A stretch of 32,000 nucleotides of DNA from Candidatus Iainarchaeum sp. (GCA_038736825.1 JAVYME010000007.1:1-32000); one strand, 5' to 3'. Counted from the first letter of the stretch, positions 1-31,027 are shown. The notes: a model not told the origin generated them from the sequence alone. Numbers and translations are program-made.

Positions 1-59
1 TTGTTTGCTTTGTTTTGGAATGAAAAGGCTTTCAGGGAACTGGTGGTAACAGGAGAAAA
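1..59 (+). repeat. 59-nt perfect direct repeat, copy 1 (identical to 4115-4173)
   Basis: Base-by-base comparison gives identity from window position 1 to 59. Divergence starts at position 60 (a versus g at 4174). The repeat may extend upstream of the window. Confidence 0.95.
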
Positions 60-2094
60 AGGCGAATTTTTTGAAGCAACATACACAATTCAAAAAACCC
101 CCACACTTTGCACTTTACAGCCAGGCGATGTTTCCTCAATGACAAGCAAGGCTTTTTCAGAGGAAGGGCCAAGGCTTTATTTTTGCATGAACAAACAGCA
201 ATGCAAAACAGAAGGCGGTTTTACCTTTTACTCTAAAACCTATAATGGAAAACCCTTGGATCCATGCCCTGCACTTGAAGAATTTTGCTGTTACAAGCCA
301 AGAAGCCAGACACTAAAAGACGAAGTAGCTGCCTGCATTGCAAACCCAGACTTTGACCTTTTCCTTAAAGATGAGACTCCAAGCCCAGAATTCATTGAAA
401 GCATTTTGCGGGCATGGCCTTCAAAGCCGAGCCCTGCACTTGAAGAGCAAGGCATTGGAAGTGCATTTGTAAAATATAGTGCGAGTGCTTGGAATGCCAA
501 GCTAGGCGATGGCTCCACGTTTTATAAAAAGGAAAAATTTGATCCATTAGTATTACTGGCTTTTTTCAGTTATGAATCACAAATGGGCACTGACCCAAAA
601 TTCAATCCTGCAAGAAAATCGGTTGGAAACATCAAAAAAGCACTTGATTCAACTGAAGCCCTAAAACAATCAGTTTTCTGCAATAATGTCAAGCCTGAAT
701 TCGGAGAATTTTGCGGTTACCTGAAATGGGAGGATTCCATAAAACACTGGGCTTATTTGATGGAAGCAAACTACATTCAAGGACAGGGATTGAAGTCTTT
801 GAGGCAAATCCTTTACAAGTATGCTCCGCCAACAGAAAACGACACAGAGAAATACATTGATTCAGTGAAAAGGCGTGCTTGCGAGTGGCGTGCTCTCTGG
901 AAAGAGCAAAAGGAAAAAGAACAGCCGAAGGTAATGGCATTAATTGATGTTTCAGGTTTTCTTCAAAGGAACTCCAAGCAGATTTTGTCAGCGCTTGACA
1001 CAATCCTTTTCTGGAACGCTGACACAGACAAAGACGGCGTAATAGACTTAAAGGACAAGTGCCCGCACGAAAAGGAAACCTACAACCGGTACAAGGACAC
1101 AGACGGTTGCCCAGATGAAAGCGAAAAAAGAGAGCTTGAAAGGCAGGGCAAGCTCAAGCCAAGCGAGCGCTCCAAAAAAATTTACACTTCCCCTTCAAGC
1201 ATAAGCGGAAAAAAAGCAATCCTTTTTGTCCCAATAGATTTTGACTATTCTTCAGATGAAAAATTCAAGAAAAGCGCAAAACAATCCTTTGACAAGTTTT
1301 TAGAGGAAGCCGGGCTTTCAAGCAAAAAAACAGTGCTTGTTGCAGACAGCGTTTTAGAATATGAAAAAATAGAGGAATGCAAAAAACTCAGGACTTCAAG
1401 GTACAGGTACACCTTGTTCAACGAGCGCTCTATAGACAAGCTTGGCACTTTTTGGAGAAGCCTTGACGCCTGCGGAGCAAACTTTTTAAGAGCAAAATAC
1501 GGAATGCTGCCAAAAACCACAACCTATTCCTCTGACTACCGGGTTGTAGGGCTAATCAACACAGAACACGCAGTGTTTTACGATTTAGGGCAAGCCAAAG
1601 GCTTTGCAATGTTTGAAAAATCAAAGCCAAGGAATTCCATTATTGCAGTCAATTCAAGCCAGGCAGTAGGACACGAGCTAGGGCACACTTTTGGCTTGGC
1701 AGAACAATACAGCAAAAAAGCCTTTTTGGAAAGCTACAAAAAATACCCCTACATAAAAAACTTTTACCCTGGGCCATTACAAAAATACTTCAATCTGGAT
1801 GCAGAAAAAGCAAGCTCGCTTTACCAAAAAGGCTACACTCGCGGAACAGAAGACTTTCCAGAATGCCCTTACTCCAAGGACGAGCTTTACACTAAATGCC
1901 CTGACTGGCCTGAATGGTTAAGCTTTGGAGCAGTTGACTGTTATGGAAGAAAAATGCCGAAAACCGGCACACTCAAAAAAAGAAGCTTTATGGGGCCTTC
2001 AAGCATTATTGATGTGGGGGTTGCAGGAATAGAAACAACAGATCACGGATTTGACTGTTTTGAACAGCCAGCAATCCAAAAACAATGGGGTTAA
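1..2094 (+). CDS. Secreted modular HExxH zinc-metallopeptidase-like protein, paralog A1 (5' end lies outside the window)
   Basis: The frame is open from base 1 to TAA at 2092-2094. Bases 1-59 are identical to 4115-4173 inside paralog A2 (LFALFWNEKAFRELVVTGEK). It carries a TSP3-like Ca-binding motif (DTDKDGVIDLKDKCPHEKETYNRYKDTDGCPDE) and a zincin motif HELGHTFGLAEQY (HExxHxxGxxE, reminiscent of the M64-type HExxH...DEY). The Cys-rich C-terminus ends in FDCFEQPAIQKQWG, as in A2. Confidence 0.8.
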   Translation: MFALFWNEKAFRELVVTGEKGEFFEATYTIQKTPTLCTLQPGDVSSMTSKAFSEEGPRLYFCMNKQQCKTEGGFTFYSKTYNGKPLDPCPALEEFCCYKPRSQTLKDEVAACIANPDFDLFLKDETPSPEFIESILRAWPSKPSPALEEQGIGSAFVKYSASAWNAKLGDGSTFYKKEKFDPLVLLAFFSYESQMGTDPKFNPARKSVGNIKKALDSTEALKQSVFCNNVKPEFGEFCGYLKWEDSIKHWAYLMEANYIQGQGLKSLRQILYKYAPPTENDTEKYIDSVKRRACEWRALWKEQKEKEQPKVMALIDVSGFLQRNSKQILSALDTILFWNADTDKDGVIDLKDKCPHEKETYNRYKDTDGCPDESEKRELERQGKLKPSERSKKIYTSPSSISGKKAILFVPIDFDYSSDEKFKKSAKQSFDKFLEEAGLSSKKTVLVADSVLEYEKIEECKKLRTSRYRYTLFNERSIDKLGTFWRSLDACGANFLRAKYGMLPKTTTYSSDYRVVGLINTEHAVFYDLGQAKGFAMFEKSKPRNSIIAVNSSQAVGHELGHTFGLAEQYSKKAFLESYKKYPYIKNFYPGPLQKYFNLDAEKASSLYQKGYTRGTEDFPECPYSKDELYTKCPDWPEWLSFGAVDCYGRKMPKTGTLKKRSFMGPSSIIDVGVAGIETTDHGFDCFEQPAIQKQWG

Positions 2095-2098
2095 AAAA

Positions 2099-2830
2099 AT
2101 GAAAAAGGCATTGCTTTTTGCAATTTTCCTGCTTTTCTTTGCACAGGTTTTTTCCCTTGAGAATGCTGCTTCAAGTGATTCAGAGGAGGAAACCCTTGTT
2201 TTTGAGGCAAGAATTGCCATAGAGGAAAACGCAGTCGTGGTTGACAGCGTGCAAGTGGTTTATGGCACTCCAATGGAAATCGATTCTGATGCAAACTATG
2301 TTGCCAAAATTCTTGACGAACAACTTTCAGTTTTATACCAGGCAGGATTTGATTTTGAAGAATTCACAGTCACTTTGCCTCCAGAGGCTTCAGAAGAAGA
2401 AATAGAAAAACATTATGCTGGGCCTCCTTCAGCGGTTGAAAAAGTATTGTTTTTGCCTTATTTTGAGGAAGCGGCTGTGCTTGCAATAGGTTCCAGGAAA
2501 GGCGAACTGATTGCCTTGATTGATTTGCAGGAAAGGGTTTGCAATAAGGATGGCAAGTGCGGTGAAAACGAAAACTTTTTATCCTGTCCTGCGGATTGCC
2601 CGCTGGAAAAAAAAGACAATTATTGTTTGCCGGAAAAAGACAATGTTTGCGATTCCGATTGTGTTGAAGGCTTGGATTCTGATTGTGAAAAGGGCGGCAA
2701 AGAAGGCGTGAAAGCGGAAACGTTTTCCATTGAACAAACCTATTTTATTGCAGTGGTGGTTTTAGCCTTTGTTTTGATTTTTGCATACAATGTTTTAAGG
2801 AAAAAAAGAAAGCAAAAAGGCAAAGCTTGA
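2099..2830 (+). CDS. Small membrane-anchored secreted protein with 8-Cys module, paralog B1 (partner of A1)
   Basis: ATG at 2099 lies 4 nt after the A1 stop. The signal peptide is MKKALLFAIFLLFFAQVFS. The Cys module reads CGENENFLSCPADCPLEKKDNYCLPEKDNVCDSDCVEGLDSDC. A C-terminal TM helix (YFIAVVVLAFVLIFAY) is followed by a basic tail. It is a paralog of 5789-6493. The ORF-track start at 2051 overlaps A1 and precedes the signal peptide, so 2099 is preferred. Confidence 0.8.
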   Translation: MKKALLFAIFLLFFAQVFSLENAASSDSEEETLVFEARIAIEENAVVVDSVQVVYGTPMEIDSDANYVAKILDEQLSVLYQAGFDFEEFTVTLPPEASEEEIEKHYAGPPSAVEKVLFLPYFEEAAVLAIGSRKGELIALIDLQERVCNKDGKCGENENFLSCPADCPLEKKDNYCLPEKDNVCDSDCVEGLDSDCEKGGKEGVKAETFSIEQTYFIAVVVLAFVLIFAYNVLRKKRKQKGKA

Positions 2831-2836
2831 GGTTGA

Positions 2837-5785
2837 ATGCAATGCTTGGTTTTTTTTTGCGCAAAGGCTTTTTTTTGTTTTTTTTCTTTTGCTTTTTTTC
2901 CTGTAATCGCTCAATCTACTGTTGATTCTGGGGTTGTTGTTGCGCAAAGGTTTGGTTTGGACAGGGTTTTGCTGGAATGGGATGTGAATGCGATAACTCC
3001 CACTATGTGTGATCCTTTGTTTGTTGTGGGAGAGAGTGGTTTTTTTTGTGATGCAACCCAGTTTTCTATAATGCTTTCCAAGCGTCTTGTGTTGGAGCCT
3101 GACTTGAATGAGTTTGAGGTTTTGCTGTTGGCGGATAATTATGGGGGTTCTTTTAGGGAGGCTTTTTCTGGTTTTTATTCTGGGCGTCTTTTTTTGGGTG
3201 GCAGGGTTGATGTTTCCAAGTGGTTTTTTTTGAATAGTCCTGGGCGGGCTGGCTTGTACAGGGTTTTTTTGGATTCTAATGAGGGTGGTTTTTTTGTTAG
3301 GTTTGTTTTGGTGGAGGACTTGAATGGCTTGGATTCCAGGTTGGGCACTCGTTTTTCTGAGAATCCGTTTTTTGGTTTGGCTTTTGATGCTTTTCCTTTT
3401 GATGGTGAAAGGGATTTTGGTTTGACTGGAAAGGGTGAGGTTTTTTATTTGAATGATGTTTCACGGCTTCCTGTTGCGGTGAATGATTCTTCTGGGCTTG
3501 AGGTTGAGTCTGGAAAGACTTTTGCGGATACTGCTTCTGGTTTGGTTTTGGGTTTTGATTTGAAGTCAAGGGTTTTGAGGTTTAATCGTTCTGTTCCGTC
3601 TGTTGTTTCTTTGCATTTGCGTGAGAGTGGTTCTTTTACTGGTTTTTATTCTTTGGCTGATTTGTCTGGCAGGGTTTTTTCTCGCGATTTTTTTGGGGAT
3701 AGGGTTTTTTTGTTGGATTGGAGTGGTTCTGATGGGGTTTTTAGGGATGTTTTTTTGGATAGGGTTGCTTCTGGTTTGAGGTGTGATGGTTGGAGTGAGA
3801 GTTTGCCTTCTGGCAAGCTGGTTGTTTCTCCCGGGGTTTCTGATTCTTTGTCTTTTCATTCTGTTGTTTTTTTGCCTGAAGGGGTTGTTTTGAGGTGGTT
3901 GTGTGTTTCTGGTGATGCGTTTGTGGAGTTGCGTTCTTTTGCTGGTGGTGTTAGTGGTTTTTATTCTGGTGTGAGGAATGGTTTTGTTTCTTCTGGGCGT
4001 TTGTTGTCTGTTTCTTTGCCGGCTGGTTCTTTTGAGGGGGTTTTTTCTTTGAGGGCTGTTTTGGGGGAGGTTGTTGCTGGAAGAGTGAGGGTTTTGTCTG
4101 AACCGGAAAAGGGTTTGTTTGCTTTGTTTTGGAATGAAAAGGCTTTCAGGGAACTGGTGGTAACAGGAGAAAAGCCGGAAGATGAACCGGTTGCAGAGGA
4201 AATAAGCAGTTATGCTGCACTTCCAGCAGGTGGAGCGAATGCACCCTATGTTTTCAAGGTTTACTTGCAACCATTGTCTCCAACCGGCAGGGAGGACATT
4301 TATTGTTTTGCTTCAGGAATAGATCCAAACAATTCACCCTTAAATTTTATTTTCACTTGGAGGCTTAACGGAATTGAAGTTCAAAAATACCAAATTAATG
4401 GCGCTTTGAGTGGCGCTGAACGCACTCAATCAAGCATGCTTTCCAAGCAAAAACTGGCTGAAAGAAGAGCGAGCACTGGAACAGTGATTGAATGCGAGGT
4501 TATAGTCAACAATGGCAGAACCCAAAGCCATCCGGTTACAGCCAAAGCAACCATTGGACAGGAAAACCCAGTCGGGCAAAGCTCTGGCGCTCTCCCTGAT
4601 TCTGATGGTGATGGAATTCCAGATGCAAGCGATAGATGCCCTTATGAAAAAGGCACTTTAGCCAACCAAGGCTGCCCTTCAAGCACTCCATCACTGCCAG
4701 CTTCTCCGTTGACGCCATCACAGTTGACACCATCACAAAACACTGTTTCCTTTTATTTCCTTCCAATTGACTGGGAAGGCTCTCAGCAATCCTTTGAAAC
4801 CGAAGTGAACGGGCAACTCGCTTTTTTGCTGGAAAAATCCGGCATTAAAAGCGATCCAGCCTGTTCAGGGTTTTCCTTTCAAAAAACAATCCTTCCAATG
4901 ACTCTAGCAGAACAATGCGGTTTGAGCTTGAAAACCACAATCAATTACAATGACTTTTTGTCAAAAGTTTATAGTTGCCTTCAAAGACAGGGAATTCCCT
5001 TAAACAATAAAAAAACCATTTTTGCAGGTTTAAGCAATTCAACCTCCAGCAGCTTAGTTGTTTGCTCTTACACGGCTTCAGGCTCTCAGTGCTTTAACTG
5101 GTTTGGTTTTCACGATCGCCTTGGAGGTTCAGGGTTTGGCACAAGCGTTTTGATTGCACTGGCTTCAACAGTTGGAAGCCCAAAACTTGGCTTTGACCTG
5201 TTCTCTCACGAAGTAGGGCACAGCCTGGGCTTTTGCGAGCAATACTCTTATTCTAAAAATGTGGCTCAACAGAGTGCCAGGCAGTTCAGCAGTTTTGGTG
5301 GTTGCACAAACAAGTATCCCGGGAGTGGGGAAACACTGTATGCCTTGCTTTTTTCCCAGTCCTATGAAAAATGCCCTGGTGAAACAATTCCAACCAATTG
5401 CCCTGAATTTGTGCAAATAAGCTATGTGAGTGCATACGATTTGGGTTTAACCACCACTCCAACCGAGGACAGCACTAAAGCCAAGGTTTTGTCATCAGAG
5501 TTAAGGGAAAAAATAAGATTGCATTGCTCTAAATTTGCTTCCCCAGACAAATGCATTTCAGATTATGTTTCAAGGCAGAACTGGTCTCTGCCTGATGTGG
5601 ACTGCCTTGGCAGAAGGTTTTTTGTCGCCGGAAAGGAAAACAGGGACATTATGGGGGTAGTGTCCAAAATCCAACAGGAAATGGCAATGGTTTTTACAAG
5701 AGCAGGCTATTCTTCAAACCCAGAGCGTTCCTTTGACTGTTTTGAAAAAGAACAATTCAAAAAACAGTGGTGTTTGGGGGGCTGA
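2837..5785 (+). CDS. Secreted modular HExxH zinc-metallopeptidase-like protein, paralog A2 (982 aa)
   Basis: ATG at 2837 is preceded by GAGGT, and the N-terminus is hydrophobic and signal-like. The first ~430 codons are extremely G+T-rich. An Ig-like module follows (IYCFASGIDPNN..FTWRLNGIEV..IECEVIVNNG), then a TSP3-like motif (DSDGDGIPDASDRCPYE), a P/S/T linker, the zincin motif HEVGHSLGFCEQY and the C-terminus FDCFEKEQFKKQW. Other + frames in the skewed part are closed by TGA. Confidence 0.8.
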   Translation: MQCLVFFCAKAFFCFFSFAFFPVIAQSTVDSGVVVAQRFGLDRVLLEWDVNAITPTMCDPLFVVGESGFFCDATQFSIMLSKRLVLEPDLNEFEVLLLADNYGGSFREAFSGFYSGRLFLGGRVDVSKWFFLNSPGRAGLYRVFLDSNEGGFFVRFVLVEDLNGLDSRLGTRFSENPFFGLAFDAFPFDGERDFGLTGKGEVFYLNDVSRLPVAVNDSSGLEVESGKTFADTASGLVLGFDLKSRVLRFNRSVPSVVSLHLRESGSFTGFYSLADLSGRVFSRDFFGDRVFLLDWSGSDGVFRDVFLDRVASGLRCDGWSESLPSGKLVVSPGVSDSLSFHSVVFLPEGVVLRWLCVSGDAFVELRSFAGGVSGFYSGVRNGFVSSGRLLSVSLPAGSFEGVFSLRAVLGEVVAGRVRVLSEPEKGLFALFWNEKAFRELVVTGEKPEDEPVAEEISSYAALPAGGANAPYVFKVYLQPLSPTGREDIYCFASGIDPNNSPLNFIFTWRLNGIEVQKYQINGALSGAERTQSSMLSKQKLAERRASTGTVIECEVIVNNGRTQSHPVTAKATIGQENPVGQSSGALPDSDGDGIPDASDRCPYEKGTLANQGCPSSTPSLPASPLTPSQLTPSQNTVSFYFLPIDWEGSQQSFETEVNGQLAFLLEKSGIKSDPACSGFSFQKTILPMTLAEQCGLSLKTTINYNDFLSKVYSCLQRQGIPLNNKKTIFAGLSNSTSSSLVVCSYTASGSQCFNWFGFHDRLGGSGFGTSVLIALASTVGSPKLGFDLFSHEVGHSLGFCEQYSYSKNVAQQSARQFSSFGGCTNKYPGSGETLYALLFSQSYEKCPGETIPTNCPEFVQISYVSAYDLGLTTTPTEDSTKAKVLSSELREKIRLHCSKFASPDKCISDYVSRQNWSLPDVDCLGRRFFVAGKENRDIMGVVSKIQQEMAMVFTRAGYSSNPERSFDCFEKEQFKKQWCLGG
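4115..4173 (+). repeat. 59-nt perfect direct repeat, copy 2 (identical to 1-59)
   Basis: See copy 1. This copy sits on the transition from G+T-skewed to ordinary composition inside A2. Confidence 0.95.
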
Positions 5786-5788
5786 AAA

Positions 5789-6493
5789 ATGCGCAAAACG
5801 TTTTTGGTTTTTGCTTTTTTTCTTTTTTCAGTCCAAGTTTTTGCAGTAAATCCGGAAAAATGCCTTTTTTTCAGGGTTTTTTGGGAGAAAGGCGATTACC
5901 AGATAGACAGCTTGCGAATTGTAATGGATTTTCCGCTGGAAGTAGACCCTGAAGGCGATTACTTGGTAAAATTGCTTGATTCAAAGGGCACTGCATTATA
6001 CCAGCACAAAACAAAAAAGGCCAGCACTGTTTTAGAGCAATCCATCGAACCATTGAACGGTGAAACCACTGACCAAAACATTGTAATAGATTTTGACACA
6101 ATTGCTGGAACCCAGAGAGGGCAAATGTTTTTCCTCTTGCCTTATACTGAAAACGCGAAAAAAATTTCCTTTGAGCATGGCACTGCGGTTTTGGCTGAAG
6201 CGGATTTAAGCGTTTTATGCCAAGCAAATGGAAAGTGTGAAAGCCAGGAAAACTTTTTGTCTTGCCCGCAAGACTGTCCCTTGAGCGAAAAGGACAATTA
6301 TTGTTATGCTTTCACAGACGGAACCTGTGATCCGGACTGCATTGAAGGCTTTGATTCTGATTGCACTAAAAGCAATGGAGTGAAAAAAGAACAGTTTTCC
6401 CTTGAACAAGTTTATTTTATTGGAGTGGTGGTTTTAGCCTTTGCTTTAATGGTTTCATACAATGTTTTAAGGAAAAGAACCGGAAAAAAATAA
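5789..6493 (+). CDS. Small membrane-anchored secreted protein with 8-Cys module, paralog B2 (partner of A2)
   Basis: ATG lies 3 nt after the A2 stop. The signal peptide is MRKTFLVFAFFLFSVQVFA. The Cys module reads CESQENFLSCPQDCPLSEKDNYCYAFTDGTCDPDCIEGFDSDC. The TM helix is YFIGVVVLAFALMVSY followed by a basic tail. Nucleotide stretches agtggtggttttagcctttg and catacaatgttttaaggaaaa are identical to B1. Confidence 0.85.
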   Translation: MRKTFLVFAFFLFSVQVFAVNPEKCLFFRVFWEKGDYQIDSLRIVMDFPLEVDPEGDYLVKLLDSKGTALYQHKTKKASTVLEQSIEPLNGETTDQNIVIDFDTIAGTQRGQMFFLLPYTENAKKISFEHGTAVLAEADLSVLCQANGKCESQENFLSCPQDCPLSEKDNYCYAFTDGTCDPDCIEGFDSDCTKSNGVKKEQFSLEQVYFIGVVVLAFALMVSYNVLRKRTGKK

Positions 6494-7303
6494 CTAGAGT
6501 GAAATTTCTTCCAGTGCTTTCAATACGTGCTCTTCCCTTACAAGCCTGCTTGCATCTTGCTCTGCCTTCAAGCCAGCTAGTTTTAAGAGGTTGACTGCAA
6601 GGCGAGCGTCGCCTTTAAGGGAAGCCTTTTCTGCAATCAATTCAAGCGCTCTTTTTTCCCAAGTGTCCTCATAAAAAGCGTATTTTTTTCTTTCCCTTAC
6701 AATGCCCTGGATTTCAAGGCGAGAATAAGGCCTGAAAAGGATTTCTTTCGGCAAAAGCCTGGATTTTATGCGTTCATCGAGTTCTGCAAGGAAACCGCTG
6801 TTGTTTGAGATAAGGATTGCTGATTTGGTTTTGAATCTTTCCAGGAACGCGTACAGAAAGCCTTGCTCTTTTGCCCGGTCTATTTCGTCAAAGCAAGCGG
6901 CAACCGGCGTGCTGCCGGTTCTTTCAATTATTTTTTCCAGCAAGAGTGATTCTTCCGCGCTTGCTGGCGCCAAAATCTTTAATTGCGAGCACATTTCCCG
7001 GAATATTTCTTTTCCAGTGGGGTGAGTCCAGCAGTTCACGTAAAAAACAAAGGCATTGCTTTCCTCTGCGAATTCTTCCAGCACTTTTTTGACTGCATGG
7101 GTTTTTCCTATTCCGGCTTTTCCTGTTATTAACAGGTTGCGCCCGCTTTTTCCTTCAAGCAAGGGCGAAATTGAGGCTGCAATTTCCCTGGTTTCGTTTT
7201 CCCTGAACGGCATTATTGGCGGAATGAAGTCTGGTTCAAGCGATTCAGGGTTCGAGAAAAGGGATTCTTCTTCTCCAAGCGGGGAAAGCTTTTCAGGGTT
7301 CAT
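6494..7303 (-). CDS. cdc6: Orc1/Cdc6-type AAA+ ATPase, short form without C-terminal winged-helix domain
   Basis: Walker A is present (LLITGKAGIGKTHAV), Walker B is CFDEIDRA, and the lid region reads ILFRPYSRLEIQGIVRER...GDARLAVNLL. The layout PFRENETREI...LLEGKSGRNLLITG is typical of Orc1/Cdc6. The start is preferred at the ATG 7303-7301, which forms an ATGA overlap with the stop of the upstream MBL gene. The ORF-track start is 7339. Confidence 0.75.
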   Translation of the reverse strand: MNPEKLSPLGEEESLFSNPESLEPDFIPPIMPFRENETREIAASISPLLEGKSGRNLLITGKAGIGKTHAVKKVLEEFAEESNAFVFYVNCWTHPTGKEIFREMCSQLKILAPASAEESLLLEKIIERTGSTPVAACFDEIDRAKEQGFLYAFLERFKTKSAILISNNSGFLAELDERIKSRLLPKEILFRPYSRLEIQGIVRERKKYAFYEDTWEKRALELIAEKASLKGDARLAVNLLKLAGLKAEQDASRLVREEHVLKALEEISL

Positions 7304-7935
7304 TGGTTTTTCTCCAGCAATACTGCTTTTTTTCCGCACAATTTTGCGAAAAGCTTTGCGTTTTCAATTGTTCCGTTTCCAGCATCTCCACCGTAATGCA
7401 TTGGTATTGCGATTTCTGGATTGATTGCTTGAACTGCTTTGACTGCGTCCTCTGCGCTCATAGTGTAAGTGCCATCCACTGGCAGGAATGCAACATCCAC
7501 TTTTCCCTTCAAGGAATTCATTTCTGGAATGAAATCAGTGTCGCCTGCAATGTAAAAGCGCACTTTTCCTGTTTCGAAAACAAAGCCTGTTCCGATTCCT
7601 TTTGGATGGAATGGTTTTGAAACATTGTAAGAGGGCACTGCAAAAATTTTGACTTCTTTTGCTTCAAAAGACTGTCCTGCTTTTAAGGGAACGGTTTTCC
7701 ATTTTGAAAGCTTTTGCGCTGCAAGTGAATTGCAAACTATTATTGTTTCAGGCGAGGCAATTTTTGCAATGTCTTCTGGCGAGCAATGGTCAAAGTGTTC
7801 ATGGGTTACCAGCACAATGGATGCCTTTTCGTTTTCTTTTATGTTGAATGGGTCTGTGTAAATCGTGTTATTGCCTGTTTTTATTTTGAAGCAGGCATGG
7901 CAAAGCCATTCTATTATAGTGCCCTTGAATTCCAT
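7300..7935 (-). CDS. Metallo-beta-lactamase-fold metal-dependent hydrolase (UPF0173-like)
   Basis: It has the HxHxDH motif in IVLVTHEHFDHCSPEDI, a later GDTDF motif, and a ~210 aa size typical of stand-alone MBL-fold hydrolases. Confidence 0.75.
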   Translation of the reverse strand: MEFKGTIIEWLCHACFKIKTGNNTIYTDPFNIKENEKASIVLVTHEHFDHCSPEDIAKIASPETIIVCNSLAAQKLSKWKTVPLKAGQSFEAKEVKIFAVPSYNVSKPFHPKGIGTGFVFETGKVRFYIAGDTDFIPEMNSLKGKVDVAFLPVDGTYTMSAEDAVKAVQAINPEIAIPMHYGGDAGNGTIENAKLFAKLCGKKAVLLEKNQ

Positions 7936-11419: not shown

Positions 11420-13228
11420 TTACTCCCATTCGATTGTTGCCGGCGGCTTGTTGGTGATATCGTATAAAATTGCTCCAATGCCGCTTGTTTTCATTATGCT
11501 TGAAGCCATTTCTTTTAGGATTTGTGGCTCCATTTTGTAGAATTCTGCAGTCATTGCCTCTTTGCTTTGAACCGGTCTTAAAACCACTGCCTCTCCTTTT
11601 CCGTTTACCTGGATTGGAAGCAATACCACTGGAAACTGCCATATTTCTGCTTGGATTCCTTTTTCCAGTGCAATCTTGTTTGCTATTGCGTCGGCTTTCC
11701 TGCACAATTCTGTTCTTTTTTTGTCCACAAACGCTTTTTTTGCCTTGATTTTTTTCACGTTTTCTGGAATGACAAGGAAAACCACTCTATTGATTTCCTG
11801 CAAGGAATTGGTTAGTTCAATTGAGGCTTTTTCGAGTTTTTCCCAGTCCAGTGCTCCTGAAAGCAATACTGGGTGCTTGTAAGTGCGCAGGTCTCCTGCA
11901 ACTCCCACGCTTTTAACTGGCAGAATGGCTGCCTTAAAACCGTGCTTTTCAGCGATTTCTCTTGCTTTTTTTTCTTGTTCAAGGACTTTTTTTTCCAGTG
12001 CTTTTCCTTCAGAGCACAAAACCCTTATGCCCAAGCCTGGCCCTGGAAAGGGATGCCTCCATACAAGGTCATCGCTTAAGCCAACAAGTTTGCCTAATTC
12101 CCTTACTTCGTCTTTGTATAATTCGCTTAATGGTTCTATTATTGCGCCTTTTTCCACCATTTCCGCTATTTCCTCTATTCTGTTGTGATGGGTTTTTATT
12201 CTGTCAGCGTATTTTGTGCGCGCGGTTTCAATTGTGTCAGGATAGATTGTTCCTTGCGCTAAAACCCATTCGTTTTCGTTAAAGCCAAGCTTTTCCACTT
12301 CTTTTTTTGTGATTTCAAGAAAGAGTTTTCCTATTATTTCGCGCTTTTTTTCAGGGTCAAAGGTTTTTTCCAGTGCTTTAAAGAATTCTTTAGAGTAATC
12401 CACTACTTTTAATTGTTTTCCGAGTTCGAGTTCTTGAAGGGCTTTTTCTACTGCACTGGTTTCCCCTTCACGCATTAATCCAGTGTCAACGTGCAATGCG
12501 AAAACCTTTTCTTGGTCTAAAGCCATGCCAAGCAATGCCAGTGTGACTGTTGAGTCAACTCCACCGCTTGCAAGCAATAAAACCTTTTTGTCGCCAGCCT
12601 TTTGCCTTATCTCCGCTATTGCCTTTTCAAGATAGCCTTGCATGGACCACTCTTTTTTGCATTCACAAATGTCCAAAACAAAGCTTGCAAGCATTTCCAT
12701 GCCGAACTCGGTGTGCGCTACTTCGGGATGGAATTGCACTCCATAAATTTTTTCCTTTTCGTTCGCCATTGCTGCAACCCTGCAATTGCCAGTGGAGCCA
12801 ATTATTTCAAATCCCTTGGGTGGTTCCACCACTTCATCGTTGTGGCTCATCCAAACAATGCTTTTTTCTGGCACTCCAATGAACAACGGGCTTTCACCTA
12901 TTGCAATCATTTCGGTTTTGCCGAACTCTTTTTTTTCACACCTGCCGATTTTGCCACCCAGTTCCCTTGCAATCAATTGCATTCCATAGCAAACGCCAAG
13001 CATTGGAATTTTTGAGGAAAAAATTTCTGGATTGAAGGCAGGGCTTTTCTCTTCAACAATGGAGTACGGTGAACCGCTTAAAATCAAGCCTTTTGCCTCT
13101 CTCAATTTTTCAATTGGCGCGTCAGGCAATGCTATTTCTGCAAAAACCCCCATTTCGCGCACTCTGCGCGCTAAAAGGTTAGCGTATTGCCCGCCAAAAT
13201 CCAATACAATGATTTTGTTTTCCGGCAT
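11420..13228 (-). CDS. guaA: GMP synthase (glutamine-hydrolysing), fused long form (602 aa)
   Basis: The GATase part carries VCYGMQLIA and FHPEV.H, the ATP-PPase P-loop is LLASGGVDSTV, and HPFPGPGLGIRVL and the C-terminal NKPPATIEWE are present. There are ~80 extra residues between the PPase domain and the C-terminus. Confidence 0.9.
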   Translation of the reverse strand: MPENKIIVLDFGGQYANLLARRVREMGVFAEIALPDAPIEKLREAKGLILSGSPYSIVEEKSPAFNPEIFSSKIPMLGVCYGMQLIARELGGKIGRCEKKEFGKTEMIAIGESPLFIGVPEKSIVWMSHNDEVVEPPKGFEIIGSTGNCRVAAMANEKEKIYGVQFHPEVAHTEFGMEMLASFVLDICECKKEWSMQGYLEKAIAEIRQKAGDKKVLLLASGGVDSTVTLALLGMALDQEKVFALHVDTGLMREGETSAVEKALQELELGKQLKVVDYSKEFFKALEKTFDPEKKREIIGKLFLEITKKEVEKLGFNENEWVLAQGTIYPDTIETARTKYADRIKTHHNRIEEIAEMVEKGAIIEPLSELYKDEVRELGKLVGLSDDLVWRHPFPGPGLGIRVLCSEGKALEKKVLEQEKKAREIAEKHGFKAAILPVKSVGVAGDLRTYKHPVLLSGALDWEKLEKASIELTNSLQEINRVVFLVIPENVKKIKAKKAFVDKKRTELCRKADAIANKIALEKGIQAEIWQFPVVLLPIQVNGKGEAVVLRPVQSKEAMTAEFYKMEPQILKEMASSIMKTSGIGAILYDITNKPPATIEWE

Positions 13229-13444: not shown

Positions 13445-14614
13445 TCAGCTTGTTGAAGGAAACCGTGCCTTTTCCAGTATGTTTTTCGGGTATTTGGGCA
13501 AAAACTCTGGTTTTGCCAGCATTGGAATGCCGTCCAGTTCTTGAACATCAGTGGTTGAAATCTTGCCATAATAGAGTTTTTCTATTTCTCCGCCTTTTTG
13601 CAAAAAATCTTGCACTTCCAGTGCGCCTTCGAAATAAAAATAGTCTTTTGGAAAAGCTCCAGGAAGAGAAGTGTCATTCAAGCCGCGTTTTGCGCGCTGG
13701 GCTAAGCGGTAAGCCTGTTCTTGTGGAAAAAAATCGCAAAGAAATTTGAATGTTTCAAAAAAAGAATTCTTTTGAGCGAAATCCACTGCAAGAACTCGCC
13801 CAGCATAGTTTTTCACTTGCTCTCCGTCAAGCAATCCAAACACTGCCTCGTTAACCACGGCAAGGCCTTCCTCTGTTTTAAGCCAGTTCCCTCCAGAGCC
13901 CTCCATAAACAAGCGAAAAGGCTGCCTTAAACCATTCAAATAACGAAAAATGTGGGTTTCAATTTCATGCAATGCCAGTCGTTTCAAATCGCTTTCAGAA
14001 AAGATTGCTCCCTCGCGCACTTTTAAAACCGCGCTTTTTGCCAGCACTACTGCGTTTGGGGAAATGTTTTCATCCAAAACCACATTCCAGCTGATTTTTT
14101 TACTGGAAAGTTCCAGTGCAAGCATTTCCGCTGCCTGCTTGCTTGAAATATTTTTTTCACTTCCATTCACTTTCACTGAATTAATTGTTTCCATTGCAAG
14201 CTTTAAGGTTTCACTGGATGGCAATCCATAAAATTCTGCTGCCTTTTCAGGAAACGCTTCAGAGCCAATGCTTCGCACCAACTCCATTCTTGCAAGCGAA
14301 GCATTTTTTCTTTTGTTCAAAAGCCGTCCAATGCCTGAATCCTCTATTTGTATGCTTTCCAGTTCTTTCCTTATTTGAAGGTATTCTGGTGTCATGGAAA
14401 AATGGCTGAAAACAGGGTTCTTTGGAAGGTAAGCGAACCTTGGATTTATTTCTTTTCCTTTAGCCAGTGCTTCAAAAAACCTTTTCCTTTGCGAAACAGA
14501 ATTGGTTGGCTCAACAAACTTTAAAACATCGGTTTCAAGCCCATCAGTTATTTCAAAAAGCCTTTTCTCGATTTCAAAAAACTCGCTAACAGGCTCAACA
14601 TCCTTTCCATTCAT
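13445..14614 (-). CDS. DUF1704 / MATCAP-like putative metallocarboxypeptidase (QEGLA-motif family)
   Basis: It has the HExxxH-type motif LALHEIETHIFRYLNG followed by WLKTEEGLAVVNE, a counterpart of the QEGLA motif. Confidence 0.6.
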   Translation of the reverse strand: MNGKDVEPVSEFFEIEKRLFEITDGLETDVLKFVEPTNSVSQRKRFFEALAKGKEINPRFAYLPKNPVFSHFSMTPEYLQIRKELESIQIEDSGIGRLLNKRKNASLARMELVRSIGSEAFPEKAAEFYGLPSSETLKLAMETINSVKVNGSEKNISSKQAAEMLALELSSKKISWNVVLDENISPNAVVLAKSAVLKVREGAIFSESDLKRLALHEIETHIFRYLNGLRQPFRLFMEGSGGNWLKTEEGLAVVNEAVFGLLDGEQVKNYAGRVLAVDFAQKNSFFETFKFLCDFFPQEQAYRLAQRAKRGLNDTSLPGAFPKDYFYFEGALEVQDFLQKGGEIEKLYYGKISTTDVQELDGIPMLAKPEFLPKYPKNILEKARFPSTS

Positions 14615-14810: not shown

Positions 14811-14980
14811 GCCGAGATGGCGGAGTGGCCCAACGCGCCAGCCTTGAGCCCAGCCTTTTTCTTTTAAAAAGAAAAAGCCTAGGTTTGACAAAAAGAAAGA
14901 CTTGATGGCAAAAGAAAATTGTGCGGCAAGCAAGCTGGTATGCCTTTTGGCATGCGGGGGTTCGAATCCCTCTCTCGGCG
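14811..14980 (+). tRNA. tRNA-Ser(UGA), class II, with 84-nt intron at 37/38 (intron 14849-14932)
   Basis: The acceptor stem is GCCGAGA/TCTCGGC with discriminator G. The D stem has 3 bp (GCG/CGC). The anticodon stem is CCAGC/GCTGG, with loop CTTGAG|A and anticodon TGA at 14845-14847. The long variable arm is ATGCC-TTTT-GGCAT and the T arm is GGGGG-TTCGAAT-CCCTC. No CCA is encoded and a T-run follows. The 4-bp helix CTTG/CAAG is flanked by 3-nt bulges AGC and CAA, forming a BHB. Confidence 0.85.
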
Positions 14981-15004
14981 CTTTTTTTTTCACTGGTGGC
15001 ATTA

Positions 15005-15568
15005 ATGGGTTTCACTGGGTTTGCATTGAAATGCTTGGAACTCAAGGATATTGAGCGCACGGGCTGGCTTGTGCGCAAAGTGAAAAAACCGGAAAGCGTT
15101 GCAAGCCATTCCTTTTTTTTGGCTTTATTGTGCTCTCTTTACGCAAAAGAAGAAGGCTTGAATGAATTGAAGTGCGTTAGGCTGGCTCTCGCCCACGACC
15201 TGCATGAAACAATCTGTGGGGACATTTGCTCTAGGGAATTCGAGCACGAACAGGAAATGACAAACGCTGAAAAAAAGAAAACCGAAGCAAAAGCAATAAA
15301 AAAATTTTCAGGCTTTGTTCCAAAAAGCAAGAGAAAAGCGCTTTCATGCCTTGAATTAGAATTCCTTGAACTTCAATCAAAAGAAGCTGTTTTTGTAAAA
15401 GACATGGACATGATTGAAATGTGCTTGCAGGCACTATACTATAAAAAAAATGAAAGAGTGAAAGCCGACATGAGTGATTTTTTCAGGAAAACCGAAAGAG
15501 AACTCAAAACCAGCACTGGCAAAAGGCTTTTCACCCAAATAAAAAAAGAATTTTCAAAATTAAAATAA
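15005..15568 (+). CDS. HD-domain hydrolase, YfbR-like 5'-deoxynucleotidase family
   Basis: Motifs are ESVASHSF (His) and LALAHDLHETICGDI (HD), with a ~190 aa size. The start is moved to Met29 (ATG 15005) because the ORF-track start at 14921 lies inside the tRNA gene. Confidence 0.7.
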   Translation: MGFTGFALKCLELKDIERTGWLVRKVKKPESVASHSFFLALLCSLYAKEEGLNELKCVRLALAHDLHETICGDICSREFEHEQEMTNAEKKKTEAKAIKKFSGFVPKSKRKALSCLELEFLELQSKEAVFVKDMDMIEMCLQALYYKKNERVKADMSDFFRKTERELKTSTGKRLFTQIKKEFSKLK

Positions 15569-17913: not shown

Positions 17914-19283
17914 CCAAACTGCCTCCTTTTCCTTACAACGCGCACCACTCCAAGTATTAGTACAAGCAATCCAAGCAACAAGATTAAGACTGCAAGAATG
18001 CCAAAGGTGTTTTCAGGCAATACTGGAATTGGAGCGGTTACCTCTATTGTTTGGGATGCACTGTTAAAACCGTCCTTTACAGCAATTATTTCAATGTTTC
18101 CAGGGCTAAGGCCTTCAAACATTGCAATGCCGTTTGAATTTGTTGTTTTTTCAATTCCGCTCACTGAAATTTTTGCGGCTTCCACTGGCCGGCCTTCGCT
18201 TTTCACTTGCACTTCCAGGGGTTGCCCTGCAACAATTTTTTCAGGTGCAAAGATTTCAAGGTTTTTTGGTTTTATTGCTTCTTTTTTTATTTCAATCAGG
18301 GAGGAAAATGCTTGAAAGTTTGGGGCTGAAACTTTTAGTTCAGCGCTGCCTTCGGCTGGGATTGCAAAAAAGGCTGTTCCGTCTTTTCCGGTTGTTTTAA
18401 TGGTTTCGCCTAATTCTATTCTTGCGTTCTCTATTGGATTGCCTTTTGATGAAACCAGCACTTTAATTATTTCGCCGGGTTTTGCTGTTTTTGGGAATTC
18501 AACTGAAAGCTTTTCCGGTTCTGCCAAAACAATTATTTTTTTCACTGCTTTTTCCAATCCTTCTTTTTCTGCAATTATTTCAAATTCTCCTGCTTGTTTT
18601 GCAAAAAAAACCGTGTCTCCAGCCAAACCAGTGGTTTTTTGTTCGCCCATGAATGAAATTTTTGCGTTTTCTGCTGGCTGGAAATTGTCAAGGGCTTTCA
18701 CTATAAAGCCTTCGCCTGCGTTTACTGTTTCCGGTGCTTCAATTGAAAGGATTTTTCCTGCAATTGCTTTAAAGGTTTTTCCGCTTTCAGTTGTTGCTTT
18801 GACTTCAAAAGAGCGCGAAATTGAAGTGTAGGTTGTGCAATTGCTTTTTTCCAGTGGAAGGATTTTTGTAATGTTGTTGTCGATTATTTCAATTTGCCCT
18901 ATTGGTTTGTCAACGCAGATTGTGAAAGTGTCGCCTGTTCTGAGCATTGAGATTTTTATGGGTGTTTCAAATGAAATTTTTGTTTCACCGCCTCCTTCGC
19001 CTGAAAGAGTGAAAAAGAATGTGCCTTCTTCGGATGGCTGTATTGAGATTTCGCCGTTGGCGCCAGTTCTTGCTTCAATTGTTTTTCCAGAAGGGTAAAC
19101 TATTGTGGCTGTTTTGTCCGCTAGTGCCATTCCATTGCAGGAAACAAGCACTACAATTTTTGCGTTTTCCCCTTCAATGACAATGCTTTTATGAAATTCT
19201 ATTGAATTGCATTCTGTTGAAATTGCGAATTGCAGAATTAGGAGAAAAGCCAAAGCTATTGTTGTTTTCTTTCCAAATTGCAT
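17910..19283 (-). CDS. Secreted protein with ~4 tandem Ig-like/beta-sandwich repeats and a C-terminal membrane anchor
   Basis: The start is placed at Met20 (MQFGKKTTIALAFLLILQFAIS, a signal peptide). There are about four ~78-aa repeats of the pattern A.I...G..KTTG.DG.A.F....G..E, and a C-terminal TM helix with a RKRRQ tail. Confidence 0.75.
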   Translation of the reverse strand: MQFGKKTTIALAFLLILQFAISTECNSIEFHKSIVIEGENAKIVVLVSCNGMALADKTATIVYPSGKTIEARTGANGEISIQPSEEGTFFFTLSGEGGGETKISFETPIKISMLRTGDTFTICVDKPIGQIEIIDNNITKILPLEKSNCTTYTSISRSFEVKATTESGKTFKAIAGKILSIEAPETVNAGEGFIVKALDNFQPAENAKISFMGEQKTTGLAGDTVFFAKQAGEFEIIAEKEGLEKAVKKIIVLAEPEKLSVEFPKTAKPGEIIKVLVSSKGNPIENARIELGETIKTTGKDGTAFFAIPAEGSAELKVSAPNFQAFSSLIEIKKEAIKPKNLEIFAPEKIVAGQPLEVQVKSEGRPVEAAKISVSGIEKTTNSNGIAMFEGLSPGNIEIIAVKDGFNSASQTIEVTAPIPVLPENTFGILAVLILLLGLLVLILGVVRVVRKRRQFG

Positions 19284-19303
19284 GCAATAATAACTCTTCC
19301 CCC

Positions 19304-19316
19304 GTATAAATATTTT
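19304..19316 (-). promoter_or_regulatory. Candidate TATA box for the Ig-repeat/vWA operon
   Basis: The - strand reads AAAATATTTATAC, centred ~27 nt upstream of the ATG at 19283. Confidence 0.35.
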
Positions 19317-19375
19317 TTGTTCTTGAAAAAACCCACCCAAAAGATTTATTAACCTTTTTCCGTTAAATGATTATT

Positions 19376-31011: not shown

Positions 31012-31027
31012 TTTTTTTTCCTCCTTT

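Follow-up and report, generated by a model that had tools for sequence, protein, structure and literature searches.

Two tandem pairs of genes, each a large gene (A) followed by a small one (B), fill the first 6,493 nt of the window, by which is meant the whole 32,000-nt stretch of Candidatus Iainarchaeum sp. DNA analysed (GCA_038736825.1 JAVYME010000007.1:1-32000), taken from a Ca. Diapherotrites (DPANN) MAG. What kind of system do such pairs encode? A sequence-only reading of this DNA had likened them to a polymorphic toxin/effector-immunity array and, as a fallback, had proposed that B might anchor the peptidase domain of A. According to the analysis described below, each pair probably encodes an extracellular zinc protease made of two chains and tethered to the membrane, with B as the anchor or accessory subunit. 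Because B is fused to the protease in related microbes, the pair looks like one split surface protease, not like a toxin and its antidote.

Organisation of the locus

The locus and its right-hand neighbour comprise the following genes:

1..2094, + strand: A1, truncated by the window start so that only its 3' part is present; orthologues P0008/L005 (50% identity) and L006
2099..2830, + strand: B1, with an ATG start
2837..5785, + strand: A2, a complete gene
5789..6493, + strand: B2, with its stop codon directly against that of the convergent cdc6/orc1 gene
6494..7339, - strand: cdc6/orc1-type AAA+ gene, conserved on the right of the A-B locus in L002, L005, and L006

ORF calls give four co-directional genes in two A-B pairs with spacers of 4, 6, and 3 nt, in agreement with the sequence-only reading. 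G-rich Shine-Dalgarno-like tracts sit within the ends of the preceding genes. Scans for sigma-70 promoters and intrinsic terminators, which are not suited to archaea, stayed at chance level. No extra copies of A or B were found elsewhere in the window. Related genomes carry a single A-B pair at this locus, and orthologues of each C-terminal/B type occur in other Diapherotrites at the same cdc6-linked position. In an independent Iainarchaeum MAG (contig L007), the order is the same: type-1 A, B, and then an N-module gene beginning from the B stop. The tandem pairs of the window, type 1 (A1/B1) and type 2 (A2/B2), are old paralogues beside cdc6. A viral origin was dropped, as no B relatives were found among IMG/VR viral contigs.

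Accessory modules of the A proteins

A1 reads, in order, as the end of the N-module (aa 1-20), the lysozyme-like module M1, a TSP3 repeat, and an M64-like metzincin domain; A2 as a signal peptide, the N-module, the Ig-like module M2, a TSP3 repeat, and an M64-like metzincin domain. The parts upstream of the catalytic domains are:

58..1008, + strand: M1 module of A1 (aa 20-336), a putative glycan hydrolase of lysozyme/glucosaminidase type
1021..1113, + strand: single predicted TSP3/OmpA-type Ca-binding repeat of A1, DTDKDGVIDLKDKCP...GCP
2837..2917, + strand: signal peptide of A2
2930..4177, + strand: N-module of A2 (aa 32-447), common to P0006-P0009, L002, L004, and L006
4232..4573, + strand: M2 module of A2 (aa 466-579), a putative Ig-like domain with a Cys-Trp-Cys pattern
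4598..4678, + strand: single predicted TSP3-type repeat of A2

The first 20 residues of A1 correspond to the N-module end (A8 profile positions 400-418). Searches of PDB and Pfam gave the N-module no relatives except a chance-level CARDB-like stretch, and none were found in JGI metagenomes. The middle modules are unrelated, as had been claimed; they are, however, shuffled domains, since one homologue of 1,663 aa (L002) contains both. M1 has the conserved stretches ..FFSYES.. and ..YKYAPPxENDTExYI.., and weak matches to Pfam Glucosaminidase (E 0.04, two of three members) and, in PDB, to Gp29 (9vvp, E 0.0065) and a phage cell-wall hydrolase (8yxk, E 0.16) are consistent with its earlier label of 'lysozyme-like'. 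M2, previously called 'Ig-like', has the invariant residues C26, W44, and C89 and weakly matches PDB Ig constant domains (E 3.5e-5 to 6e-3) and Pfam Ig_2 and Big_9 (~3-5e-3).

Both A proteins have the DxDxDGxxDxxDxCP...GCP motif that predicts a TSP type-3/OmpA-like Ca-binding repeat, one per protein. The profile matches five repeats of the OmpA-family TSP3 protein 5wtl (E 4e-23), and Pfam TSP_3 is matched by six of six members (best 9.8e-5), each under the single-repeat cut-off. Besides TSP3, Pfam, NCBIfam, and PADLOC searches with A gave no significant match.

The C-terminal domain of A is a probable divergent metzincin

The domain common to both A proteins has the following features:

1198..2091, + strand: A1 catalytic domain (aa 400-697)
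1672..1710, + strand: A1 predicted zinc motif, HELGHTFGLAEQY
1981..1995, + strand: A1 candidate Met-turn, RSFMG
2050..2088, + strand: A1 terminal helix, FDCFE..QW
4730..5776, + strand: A2 catalytic domain (aa 632-980)
5207..5245, + strand: A2 predicted zinc motif, HEVGHSLGFCEQY
5642..5656, + strand: A2 candidate Met-turn, RDIMG
5732..5770, + strand: A2 FDCFE..QW

A1 and A2 share 23% identity across ~350 C-terminal residues (E 1e-10), and both have the HExxH domain ending in FDCFE..QW that had been noticed earlier. Six homologues are invariant at HExGH..G...QYS, N.YPG, C..T.CP, DC.GR, R..MG, and FDC.E..QW. The conserved R-x-x-M-G sits ~100-135 residues downstream of the invariant HExxHxxG. Each A protein ends with the terminal helix of the catalytic domain, and neither has a hydrophobic end segment. 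The best reading of this domain is a divergent metzincin closest to the M64/igalysin IgA-peptidase family. In such an enzyme, both His of HExGH and the Glu of GxxEQY would be the zinc ligands, the Glu of HE would act as general base, and S/D-x-M-G is the candidate Met-turn.

AlphaFold2 models of the catalytic domain and of B were each built on shallow alignments of 5-7 sequences. The upper subdomain of the catalytic domain (residues 1-167) is confident (pLDDT ~75-90), and the lower one has pLDDT <50. Because this subdomain and the Cys module of B are both modelled at low pLDDT, the Met-turn, third zinc ligand, and disulfides are read at the level of sequence. The best Foldseek match in PDB is the T. 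ramosa IgA protease (9ekk/9i4z; prob 0.99, E 5.7e-3), a weak one at TM ~0.33, followed by adamalysins/ADAMTS4 and the M64 proteins BF3526 (4DF9) and BACOVA_00663 (3P1V). The likeness to M64/igalysins includes a probable metzincin-type fold, the opening strand-helix element (95% hhalign probability against bona fide M64 domains linked to B, over only 36 columns), and the pattern HExxH...G..[D/E]-x-Y, in which Tyr lies two residues past the third-ligand position, with a candidate Met-containing turn. An all-beta accessory domain straight after the catalytic domain and C-terminal membrane attachment are further shared features. Several B-linked peptidases of other DPANN and CPR genomes exceed the Pfam M64 threshold (PF09471, gathering threshold 26 bits): L012 at 64.6 bits, where the two are fused, and L026 and L016 at 53.7 and 37.9 bits, where the peptidase lies upstream. 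P0007, an N-module homologue, is annotated as M64.

The window proteins, however, fall under the PF09471 Peptidase_M64 cut-off; neither A1 nor A2 gave a match, and Pfam returned only sub-threshold Reprolysin (E 0.04-0.3). A PDB sequence-profile search with the C-terminal domain retrieved only the TSP3 repeat, and a profile search with the peptidase alignment added only two proteins. In igalysins the zinc motif reads HExxHxxxGxxD, with one more residue ahead of Gly and with Asp for a third ligand (PMC12237041), whereas the window motif is HExxHxxGxxE, lacking that residue and with Glu in place of Asp. The longer form, ending in ...DEY, occurs in L012, L063, and L026, and Asp stands at the third-ligand position in more distant B-linked relatives. 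The structural zinc site of igalysins comprises a family-specific Glu, a Cys at the opening of the Met-turn, and two Cys (CxxC) in the C-terminal helix. By contrast, the candidate Met-turns of A1 and A2 (RSFMG/RDIMG) are without Cys, and their C-terminal helix, FDCFE..QW, has one Cys only; C-V/I-M-S and FCxHC occur in P0083 and P0132, two of the fused homologues. The metzincin signature, HExxHxxG/NxxH/D with a Met-turn after it, has His or Asp at the third-ligand position. Glu there is not known among described variants, and the domain could therefore be an unusual or inactive enzyme. IgA is certainly not the substrate of the window proteases.

The B proteins

B1 and B2 share 40% identity (E 6e-54) and have the same parts, all of which had been recognised by the sequence-only reading: a signal peptide, a beta-rich region, an 8-Cys module, and a transmembrane (TM) anchor. 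Each ends in a basic tail.

2540..2686, + strand: 8-Cys module of B1, preceded by a beta-sandwich (aa ~32-142)
2738..2788, + strand: TM helix of B1
6218..6364, + strand: 8-Cys module of B2, preceded by a beta-sandwich
6410..6460, + strand: TM helix of B2

The Cys spacing is C-x5-C-x8-C-x3-C-x8-C-x7-C-x3-C-x7-C, followed by the C-terminal hydrophobic helix, and the architecture is kept across 18 diverse members. B is an exported type-I membrane protein. Its family has at least 1,458 cluster representatives at E<=1e-3 (clusters at 50% identity), 703 of them at <=1e-10. Pfam, NCBIfam, and PADLOC searches with B returned no match. The AlphaFold2 model shows a beta-sandwich (pLDDT 70-89) and a TM helix, with the Cys module at pLDDT <50; Foldseek matched the model only to generic beta-sandwiches (E >= 0.25), and no likeness to a known protease inhibitor or PPIase was found. 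Many unrelated architectures contain the 8-Cys module by itself: 46 of the best 150 matches are partial, and P0018 and P0080 are multi-repeat proteins.

Linkage of A and B across genomes

A survey for further pairs and their covariation, which the sequence-only reading had suggested, gave 34 informative loci from DPANN archaea and one Patescibacterium, where the pair is widespread as a single copy. In ~32 of them, a full-length B gene follows such a peptidase gene at a distance of -7 to +14 nt. A HExxH...[DE][EQ]Y peptidase is encoded directly upstream in L001, L002, L005-L011, L014, L016, L023-L028, L030, and 16 JGI metagenome loci. L013, L015, and L017-L022 are without a peptidase, but among full-length B-like genes only L013 and L017 lack one upstream. 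Distance matrices of the catalytic domain and of B correlate at r = 0.86, a value that none of 2,000 Mantel permutations reached, and for both window pairs the nearest neighbours of the catalytic domain and of B agree. These results strongly support the claim that A and B are a cognate pair, and the adjacency and co-variation also fit the fallback reading of B as an anchor for the peptidase domain.

At least four proteins (L012, P0031, P0083, and P0132) carry the B part as a fused C-terminal extension of the peptidase, in the order catalytic domain, B beta-sandwich, Cys module(s), TM. Fusion demonstrates functional linkage; an anchor and an intramolecular regulator are not told apart by it. 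Anchoring cannot be all that B does, since several other DPANN lineages have a peptidase with an N-terminal TM or pilin-like segment of its own.

A proposed split, membrane-tethered protease

In the proposed mechanism, A would be exported through its N-terminal signal peptide and carry accessory or targeting modules (the N-module, a lysozyme-like or Ig-like module, and one Ca-binding TSP3 repeat), ending exactly with the M64/igalysin-related catalytic domain, which may be active on an extracellular substrate. B would be translated off the same transcript in a putative operon, exported, and held in the membrane by its C-terminal helix, with the beta-sandwich and 8-Cys stalk displayed outside the cell. 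There it may form a complex with its own A through the catalytic domain, keeping that domain at the cell surface and possibly lending it stability; we infer this because the beta-sandwich/Cys/TM unit is covalently joined to the catalytic C-terminus in related lineages. Such stabilisation has a precedent in the T. ramosa IgAse, which is itself attached to the membrane: a wrapping domain downstream of the catalytic domain encloses it and is required for both folding and function (PMC12237041). In contrast to M64/igalysins, the window proteins have their beta-sandwich and anchor on a second chain, the product of a gene of its own that includes a signal peptide.

ADAM/adamalysin (M12B) membrane sheddases, the second-ranked structural matches of the A catalytic domain, also combine a metzincin, a Cys-rich extracellular stalk, and a single TM helix, as do A and B together (in one chain in the fused homologues). 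However, sequence-level membership is lacking (Reprolysin E 0.04-0.3), the third ligand is not His, and the window pair has no disintegrin or EGF domain and is split into two chains. Lactococcal PrtP is a subtilisin and PrtM a PrsA-type maturation lipoprotein, and their adjacent genes are divergently transcribed. Here too, a very large secreted protease gene stands beside a small gene for a membrane-tethered accessory that the enzyme needs, but neither protein is homologous to A or B, and the divergent orientation differs.

Alternative explanations

B might mainly regulate A, as a membrane-bound latency factor, an inhibitor, or a maturation chaperone for folding after export. PrtM serves lactococcal PrtP in this way, and pro-domains serve other metzincins, keeping the enzyme inactive or helping it fold. 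Conserved adjacency, co-variation, and fusions fit such a role too; the wrapping domain of IgAse is needed for folding, and some partner peptidases with their own N-terminal membrane segment have no need of a B anchor. However, metzincin pro-domains are normally N-terminal, B resembles no known inhibitor or PPIase, and the fused proteins have no C-terminal TM helix other than that of the B unit, which comes after the catalytic domain in the manner of an ordinary stalk. A mainly regulatory B is unlikely, and regulation and anchoring are not mutually exclusive. That A and B are merely co-transcribed and do not interact physically, B being a generic DPANN surface stalk protein in protease operons, would suit the wide occurrence of the 8-Cys module by itself and the loci without a peptidase. 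It is very unlikely given the recurrent fusion, the co-variation, and the near-constant placement of full-length B beside a peptidase in overlapping or abutting frames.

The toxin/effector-immunity interpretation, in which A is a secreted antagonistic effector and B an immunity protein guarding the producer's surface, draws on real likenesses to polymorphic toxin cassettes: a small cognate gene behind one for a large modular exported protein, the pair in tandem, swapped middle modules, an exact 59-nt junction repeat, and in A1 a possible cell-wall glycan hydrolase joined to a peptidase, as in lytic effectors. Yet a polymorphic toxin has a conserved N-terminal delivery region and a hypervariable C-terminal toxin domain, and its dedicated immunity protein is never on the same chain. 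The C-terminus of A is, with B, the conserved and vertically co-inherited part, both types being old lineages with orthologues at the one cdc6-linked locus. The small partner is exported and membrane-bound and in several homologues is joined in cis behind the peptidase, the pair is widespread as a single copy, PADLOC gave no match and no known toxin or immunity domain was found, and orphan-immunity arrays were not seen. This interpretation is highly improbable. Scarcely credible is an assembly artefact in which type 1 and type 2 are strain variants of a single-pair locus joined via the 59-nt repeat. The repeat does start at window base 1, as where a de Bruijn assembler breaks or loops, and related genomes have one pair here, but the sequence where B1 meets A2 (2830-2837) is unique, the two longest exact matches between the units apart from the repeat measure only 21 and 20 nt, and the independent contig L007 repeats the type-1 gene order. 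The split surface protease remains the preferred explanation.

Gene conversion and a G+T-rich segment

The segments concerned are:

1..59, + strand: 59-nt exact repeat, copy 1, at the N-module/middle-module junction and the window start
4115..4173, + strand: 59-nt exact repeat, copy 2
2705..2807, + strand: B1 anchor-region DNA, 83% identical to 6377-6479 of B2; gene-conversion tract
2837..4133, + strand: G+T-rich segment of A2, with 76% G+T on the coding strand and 91% G/T at third codon positions

The identical DNA reported earlier at the N-module end of A1 and A2 measures exactly 59 nt. Since one copy starts at base 1, it probably marks a contig or assembly break. The observation that the B anchor DNA is more conserved than the rest also holds: in the TM region, nucleotide identity is 0.83-0.85 and identical codons encode 93-100% of identical residues, against ~0.5 for each measure in the remainder of B1/B2. 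Gene conversion between the pairs is recent and local, affecting the 59-nt junction and the TM-anchor tract.

The G+T bias of A2 stops abruptly ~18 nt inside the repeat. Codon-preference selection was rejected as its cause because the rubrerythrin gene has the opposite codon set, and so was deamination alone (A>G / C>T), which would not give the frequent Y>F and P>A replacements of transversion type. Unstructured mRNA was also rejected as a common cause, as the A2 N-module RNA folds like other genes (-22.8 kcal/mol per 120 nt) and the rubrerythrin RNA does not (-9.7).

It is quite unlikely that the locus is a recombination-driven cassette system of a DPANN surface protease in which the A2 N-module underwent segment-limited, strand-specific recoding. 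A constant N-module may be joined at the 59-nt repeat to alternative cassettes of middle module, catalytic domain, and B; synonymous sites of the A2 N-module may have been recoded almost wholly to G/T, stopping precisely at the junction; and the same process may mark a second patch ~27 kb off on the same physical strand. If true, this would suggest a targeted mutagenesis or anti-recombination mechanism, so far undescribed, that acts on archaeal surface-protein genes, in addition to a likewise undescribed sheddase, obligately two-chain (peptidase plus B), where symbiont and host meet. With its sharp boundary, the G+T-rich recoding confined to one module is a compositional puzzle that may merit separate study.

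Implications for DPANN surface biology

Almost nothing has been characterised of the surface machinery of DPANN archaea and CPR bacteria, organisms that attach to other cells or depend on them. The linkage described here ties the large, unnamed B family to an enzymatic partner, an M64-like metzincin. It also brings archaea into the range of igalysin-like metzincins, a group known chiefly in gut bacteria, and adds a form whose third-ligand position holds an unusual Glu. The split, membrane-tethered surface protease is a testable model, to which the type-1 form adds a putative cell-wall glycan hydrolase, and the fused and split forms found in nature are a guide for designing co-expression and structure experiments.

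Arrangement of the Two A–B Pairs

The window begins with two co-directional gene pairs, as a sequence-only reading had proposed. Each encodes a large secreted HExxH protein (A) and a small membrane-anchored 8-Cys partner (B); A1/B1 is called type 1 and A2/B2 type 2.

1-2094 (+): A1, ORF, 5' part cut off by the window start
2099-2830 (+): B1, ORF
2837-5785 (+): A2, ORF
5789-6493 (+): B2, ORF

By ORF calls, the A1-B1, B1-A2, and A2-B2 spacers are 4, 6, and 3 nt, respectively. The window belongs to a metagenome-assembled genome of Candidatus Diapherotrites (DPANN); A2 and B2 are identical to the NCBI proteins QXK06_02060 and QXK06_02065, encoded on a contig of 33,348 nt. G-rich tracts (GGGGT, GAGGT, and GGGGGG) precede each downstream start, inside or just past the preceding gene, which suggests that translation of the A–B genes may be coupled; the genes would form an operon. 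Promoter and terminator scans returned chance-level matches only. No further A or B copies were found elsewhere in the window. The genes flanking the array are ordinary archaeal housekeeping genes, and a cdc6/orc1 gene is convergent with B2 with zero spacer.

The first 20 residues of A1 are the final residues of an N-terminal module (N-module) that A2 has complete. The identical DNA noted earlier at this module end is an exact 59-nt repeat (1-59 = 4115-4173). Because the repeat starts at base 1, it is most likely the point of an assembly break. Both types stand in tandem in the window, and one pair occupies the syntenic site in three other loci (L005, L006, and L002). An independent Iainarchaeum contig (L007) has the same order, a type-1 A followed by B and another N-module gene, and the B1-A2 junction is unique sequence; the tandem array is therefore probably real.

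The pairs exchange sequence locally within the genome, by gene conversion, at two tracts, the 59-nt junction and the TM-anchor region of B. The anchor DNA is more conserved than the remainder of the gene, as had been observed: the two copies agree at 0.83-0.85 of nucleotides and share 93-100% of synonymous codons, versus ~0.5 elsewhere. The TM sequences of B orthologues in other genomes are unrelated.

Modular Structure of A

When the window proteins and their homologues are compared all against all by BLAST, A divides into five modules, a single TSP3-type repeat and the following four:

A2 residues 32-447 (~420 aa): N-module
A1 residues 20-336: M1, weakly lysozyme/glucosaminidase-like
A2 residues 466-579: M2, putatively Ig-like, with a Cys-Trp-Cys pattern
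C-terminal domain (C) of A: ~300-350 aa

The N-module has no relatives in Pfam or PDB. The A1 middle, described earlier as lysozyme-like, gives weak matches (Pfam Glucosaminidase, E 0.04; a PDB phage wall hydrolase, E 0.16; Gp29, E 0.0065). The A2 middle, described earlier as Ig-like, gives profile matches to Ig constant domains (E 3.5e-5) and Pfam Ig_2/Big_9 (~3-5e-3). The Ca-binding TSP3 repeat, also recognized earlier, has a profile that fits the five repeats of the OmpA-family protein 5wtl (E 4e-23). In the BLAST comparison, modules are shuffled between genomes. The order is N-M1-C in L005 and L006 and M2-C in L001, while L002 joins N-M1-M2-C within one 1,663-aa protein, and the homologues P0006 and P0007 join the N-module to different C-termini.

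In two other assemblies, a large Peptidase_C1 + PEGA protein adjoins type-2 B genes (L001 12192-15905 (-) and L003 1039-2394 (-)). Residues ~91-211 of the L001 protein correspond to the opening ~100 residues of the N-module, a sub-module that different exported hydrolases therefore have in common.

The C-Terminal Domain as a Putative Divergent Metzincin

The HExxH motif and FDCFE...QW ending reported for the C-terminal domain lie within stretches invariant in six homologues: HExGHxxGxxxQYS, NxYPG, C...TxCP, DCxGR, RxxMG, and FDC[FY]E....QW. An AlphaFold2 model of this domain (seven sequences) has a mean pLDDT of 58; residues 1-167, the upper subdomain to the active-site helix, are confident, and the remainder is poor. 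Both AlphaFold2 models, of the catalytic domain and of B, were built from 5-7 sequences. The top Foldseek match in the PDB is the Thomasclavelia ramosa IgA protease (9ekk, 9i4z; probability 0.99, E 5.7e-3), followed by adamalysins/ADAMTS4 and the Bacteroides M64 proteins BF3526 and BACOVA_00663. TM-scores are low (~0.3) because half of the catalytic-domain model is disordered. Profile-profile comparison of the C-terminal domain with B-linked peptidases that are themselves bona fide M64 gives 95% probability, limited to the first 36 columns.

Igalysins are defined by HExxHxxxGxxD with a Tyr two residues on, a C-I-M-R Met-turn, and a structural zinc site (PMC12237041). Unlike M64 igalysins, the window A proteins have HExxHxxGxxEQY, S/D-x-M-G, and one Cys in the terminal helix. 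These deviations place A1 and A2 outside strict M64, and the C-terminal domain is best called M64-like, a putative divergent metzincin. It is unusual to find Glu where the third ligand is expected; more distant B-linked relatives carry Asp at this position (e.g., HELGHELGLNDEY and HELGHTYGLCDEY). A would be catalytically active, with Glu as a zinc ligand. Since positions correspond, the FDCFE...QW tail is read as the C-terminal helix that would close the metzincin catalytic domain rather than as a separate docking peptide.

The B Family

B1 and B2 are 40% identical. Each has the signal peptide, beta-rich part, 8-Cys module, and C-terminal TM helix previously described, plus a basic tail. The beta-rich part is modeled as a seven-strand beta-sandwich (pLDDT 70-89), and model confidence is low for the 8-Cys module. 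The Cys spacing in B1/B2 is C-x5-C-x8-C-x3-C-x8-C-x7-C-x3-C-x7-C; these residues would form a disulfide pattern, and A and B are predicted to localize as secreted and membrane-anchored proteins.

No B models exist in Pfam, NCBIfam, or PADLOC, and Foldseek with the B model returned generic beta-sandwiches only. A full HMMER profile search with B retrieved 1,458 cluster representatives at E<=1e-3 (703 at <=1e-10), and the architecture is kept in 18 diverse members. Among the best 150 of the 1,458 representatives, 87 are stand-alone (<=300 aa), 14 are full B units within longer proteins, 46 are partial matches, mostly to the Cys module, and three carry a fused HExGH peptidase. B is a member of a large family without a name.

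In locus L004, the gene at 12354-13028 follows that of P0007, an N-module + HELGHLLGLSEE peptidase. Its match to B is confined to the beta-sandwich half (profile 1-137, E 1.6e-17), and its product has a TM helix without the 8-Cys module; this gene is therefore a naturally occurring B variant that lacks the Cys stalk.

Association of A and B Across Genomes

Four independent context samples were surveyed for related pairs: close Diapherotrites homologues, GTDB species genomes, five representatives chosen across the B E-value range, and JGI metagenomes. The GTDB hosts are Iainarchaeum, Aenigmatarchaeota, Altiarchaeota, Nanoarchaeota, Woesearchaeota, and one Patescibacterium. In ~32 of 34 loci that have a full-length B gene and sufficient upstream sequence, the gene directly upstream of B encodes HExxH...[DE][EQ]Y, a count based on our own ORF calling and a motif/HMM criterion for 'peptidase'. 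Only L013 and L017 depart from this pattern. Peptidase-to-B distances range from -7 to +14 nt (15 measured cases). The upstream peptidases of L026 and L016 and the fused protein of L012 pass the Pfam M64 threshold. In L012, P0031, P0083, and P0132, the catalytic domain and then the B unit form one polypeptide whose sole C-terminal TM helix comes from the B unit.

Covariation of A and B, proposed earlier as a check, is also seen. Distance matrices of the catalytic domain and B ectodomain correlate at r = 0.86, a value reached in 0 of 2,000 Mantel permutations, and nearest neighbours agree (L005 for both A1 and B1; L001 for both A2 and B2). No relatives were found in IMG/VR viral contigs.

A ~180-aa protein precedes the peptidase-B pair in L008 (3966-4502), L009 (3942-4475), L026 (3517-4077), and L030 (3032-3589). 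In L009 and L030, the N-terminus of the peptidase itself resembles an archaeal type IV pilin signal (e.g., MRGISGWFWVIGG...), and T4SS-pilin/TraC-like or T2SSF genes lie near the pair in L026 and L030. These features hint that the pair may be linked to a pilus-like surface apparatus in other DPANN lineages.

Keto-Skewed Patches

From the A2 start codon to ~4133 (2837-4133), the coding strand is 76% G+T, and G or T fills 91% of third codon positions (A 0.05, C 0.05, G 0.31, T 0.60). The third-position G+T fraction is 0.47 in the remainder of A2 and 0.33-0.64 in all other window genes except one. The skew stops abruptly ~18 nt into the 59-nt repeat. The skewed N-module has an intact ORF and retains the invariant residues; its orthologues are normally composed, and relative to them it contains less K, I, and Y but more R, V, F, G, and L. 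A second patch lies near the window end:

~31000-32000: plus strand G/T-rich, by composition
31011-31366 (+ strand G/T): G/T-rich intergenic tract, ~110 nt at 31100-31210 almost only G and T
31367-31930 (-): rubrerythrin gene, coding strand 87% A/C at third positions

Because the minus-strand rubrerythrin gene is A/C-rich, both patches are G/T-rich on the same physical (+) strand. Hardly any structure is predicted for the rubrerythrin mRNA (-9.7 versus about -24 kcal/mol per 120 nt). G+T in 600-nt windows across 478 kb of related loci is 0.50 +/- 0.047 (range 0.26-0.67), and the peak in the window's patch is 0.80. None of three candidate causes, codon selection, simple deamination, or selection for unstructured mRNA, accounts for both patches.

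Among related contigs, the only comparable patch is A/C-rich and lies in the DPANN contig L017 (uncultured archaeon LFW-28, CABMCB010000090.1). Third positions are 84-92% A/C (e.g., at 4332-5270: A 0.47, C 0.45, G 0.07, T 0.01) in a gene run at 3450-7300, which includes the B-like gene. Gene-scale keto/amino skew therefore occurs beyond the window genome.

Other Features of the Window

Three further features were observed:

13445-14614 (-): 389-aa protein, Pfam MATCAP match (microtubule-associated tyrosine carboxypeptidase family; E 2e-48), a family whose name is surprising in a DPANN archaeon
14811-14980 (+): Rfam tRNA model match, 42.8 bits, full model 1-71 across 170 nt
15571-19340 (-): second overlapping gene pair for exported proteins, stop/start sharing 4 nt; products of 780 aa (PKD repeats, with a hint of VWA) and 476 aa (CarboxypepD_reg-like domains)

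The tRNA match is consistent with an intron-containing archaeal tRNA and overlaps the called GTG start of an HD-domain ORF (14921-15568). ARAGORN reported no tRNA in the window.

Function of the A–B Pair

The sequence-only reading likened the array to polymorphic toxin/effector-immunity loci and suggested that B could be an inhibitor, chaperone, or anchor. An effector/immunity system is disfavoured because the C-terminal domain of A is conserved rather than polymorphic and types 1 and 2 are old paralogues whose orthologues occupy the same ScpB...cdc6 locus. Moreover, B lies outside the cytoplasm and can be joined to the peptidase in cis, and no defence or toxin domains were detected. B could also act as a regulator or chaperone of A, a less likely role that is compatible with anchoring.

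The conserved adjacency, fusions, and co-variation fit a single functional unit, fused or split, in which a secreted metzincin is paired with a membrane-anchored beta-sandwich/Cys-rich stalk. B would bind its cognate A at the catalytic domain and tether this domain to the membrane, and may also stabilize it. The T. ramosa IgA protease is membrane-bound, and its downstream wrapping domain surrounds the catalytic domain and is required for both folding and function (PMC12237041); this is a precedent for the role proposed for B. The fused peptidase-B layout also resembles that of ADAM sheddases, in which a metzincin, a Cys-rich stalk, and a TM segment follow in order. For type 1, which joins a possible glycan hydrolase to a peptidase, we speculate that its substrate could be a cell wall or envelope that is attacked or remodelled.
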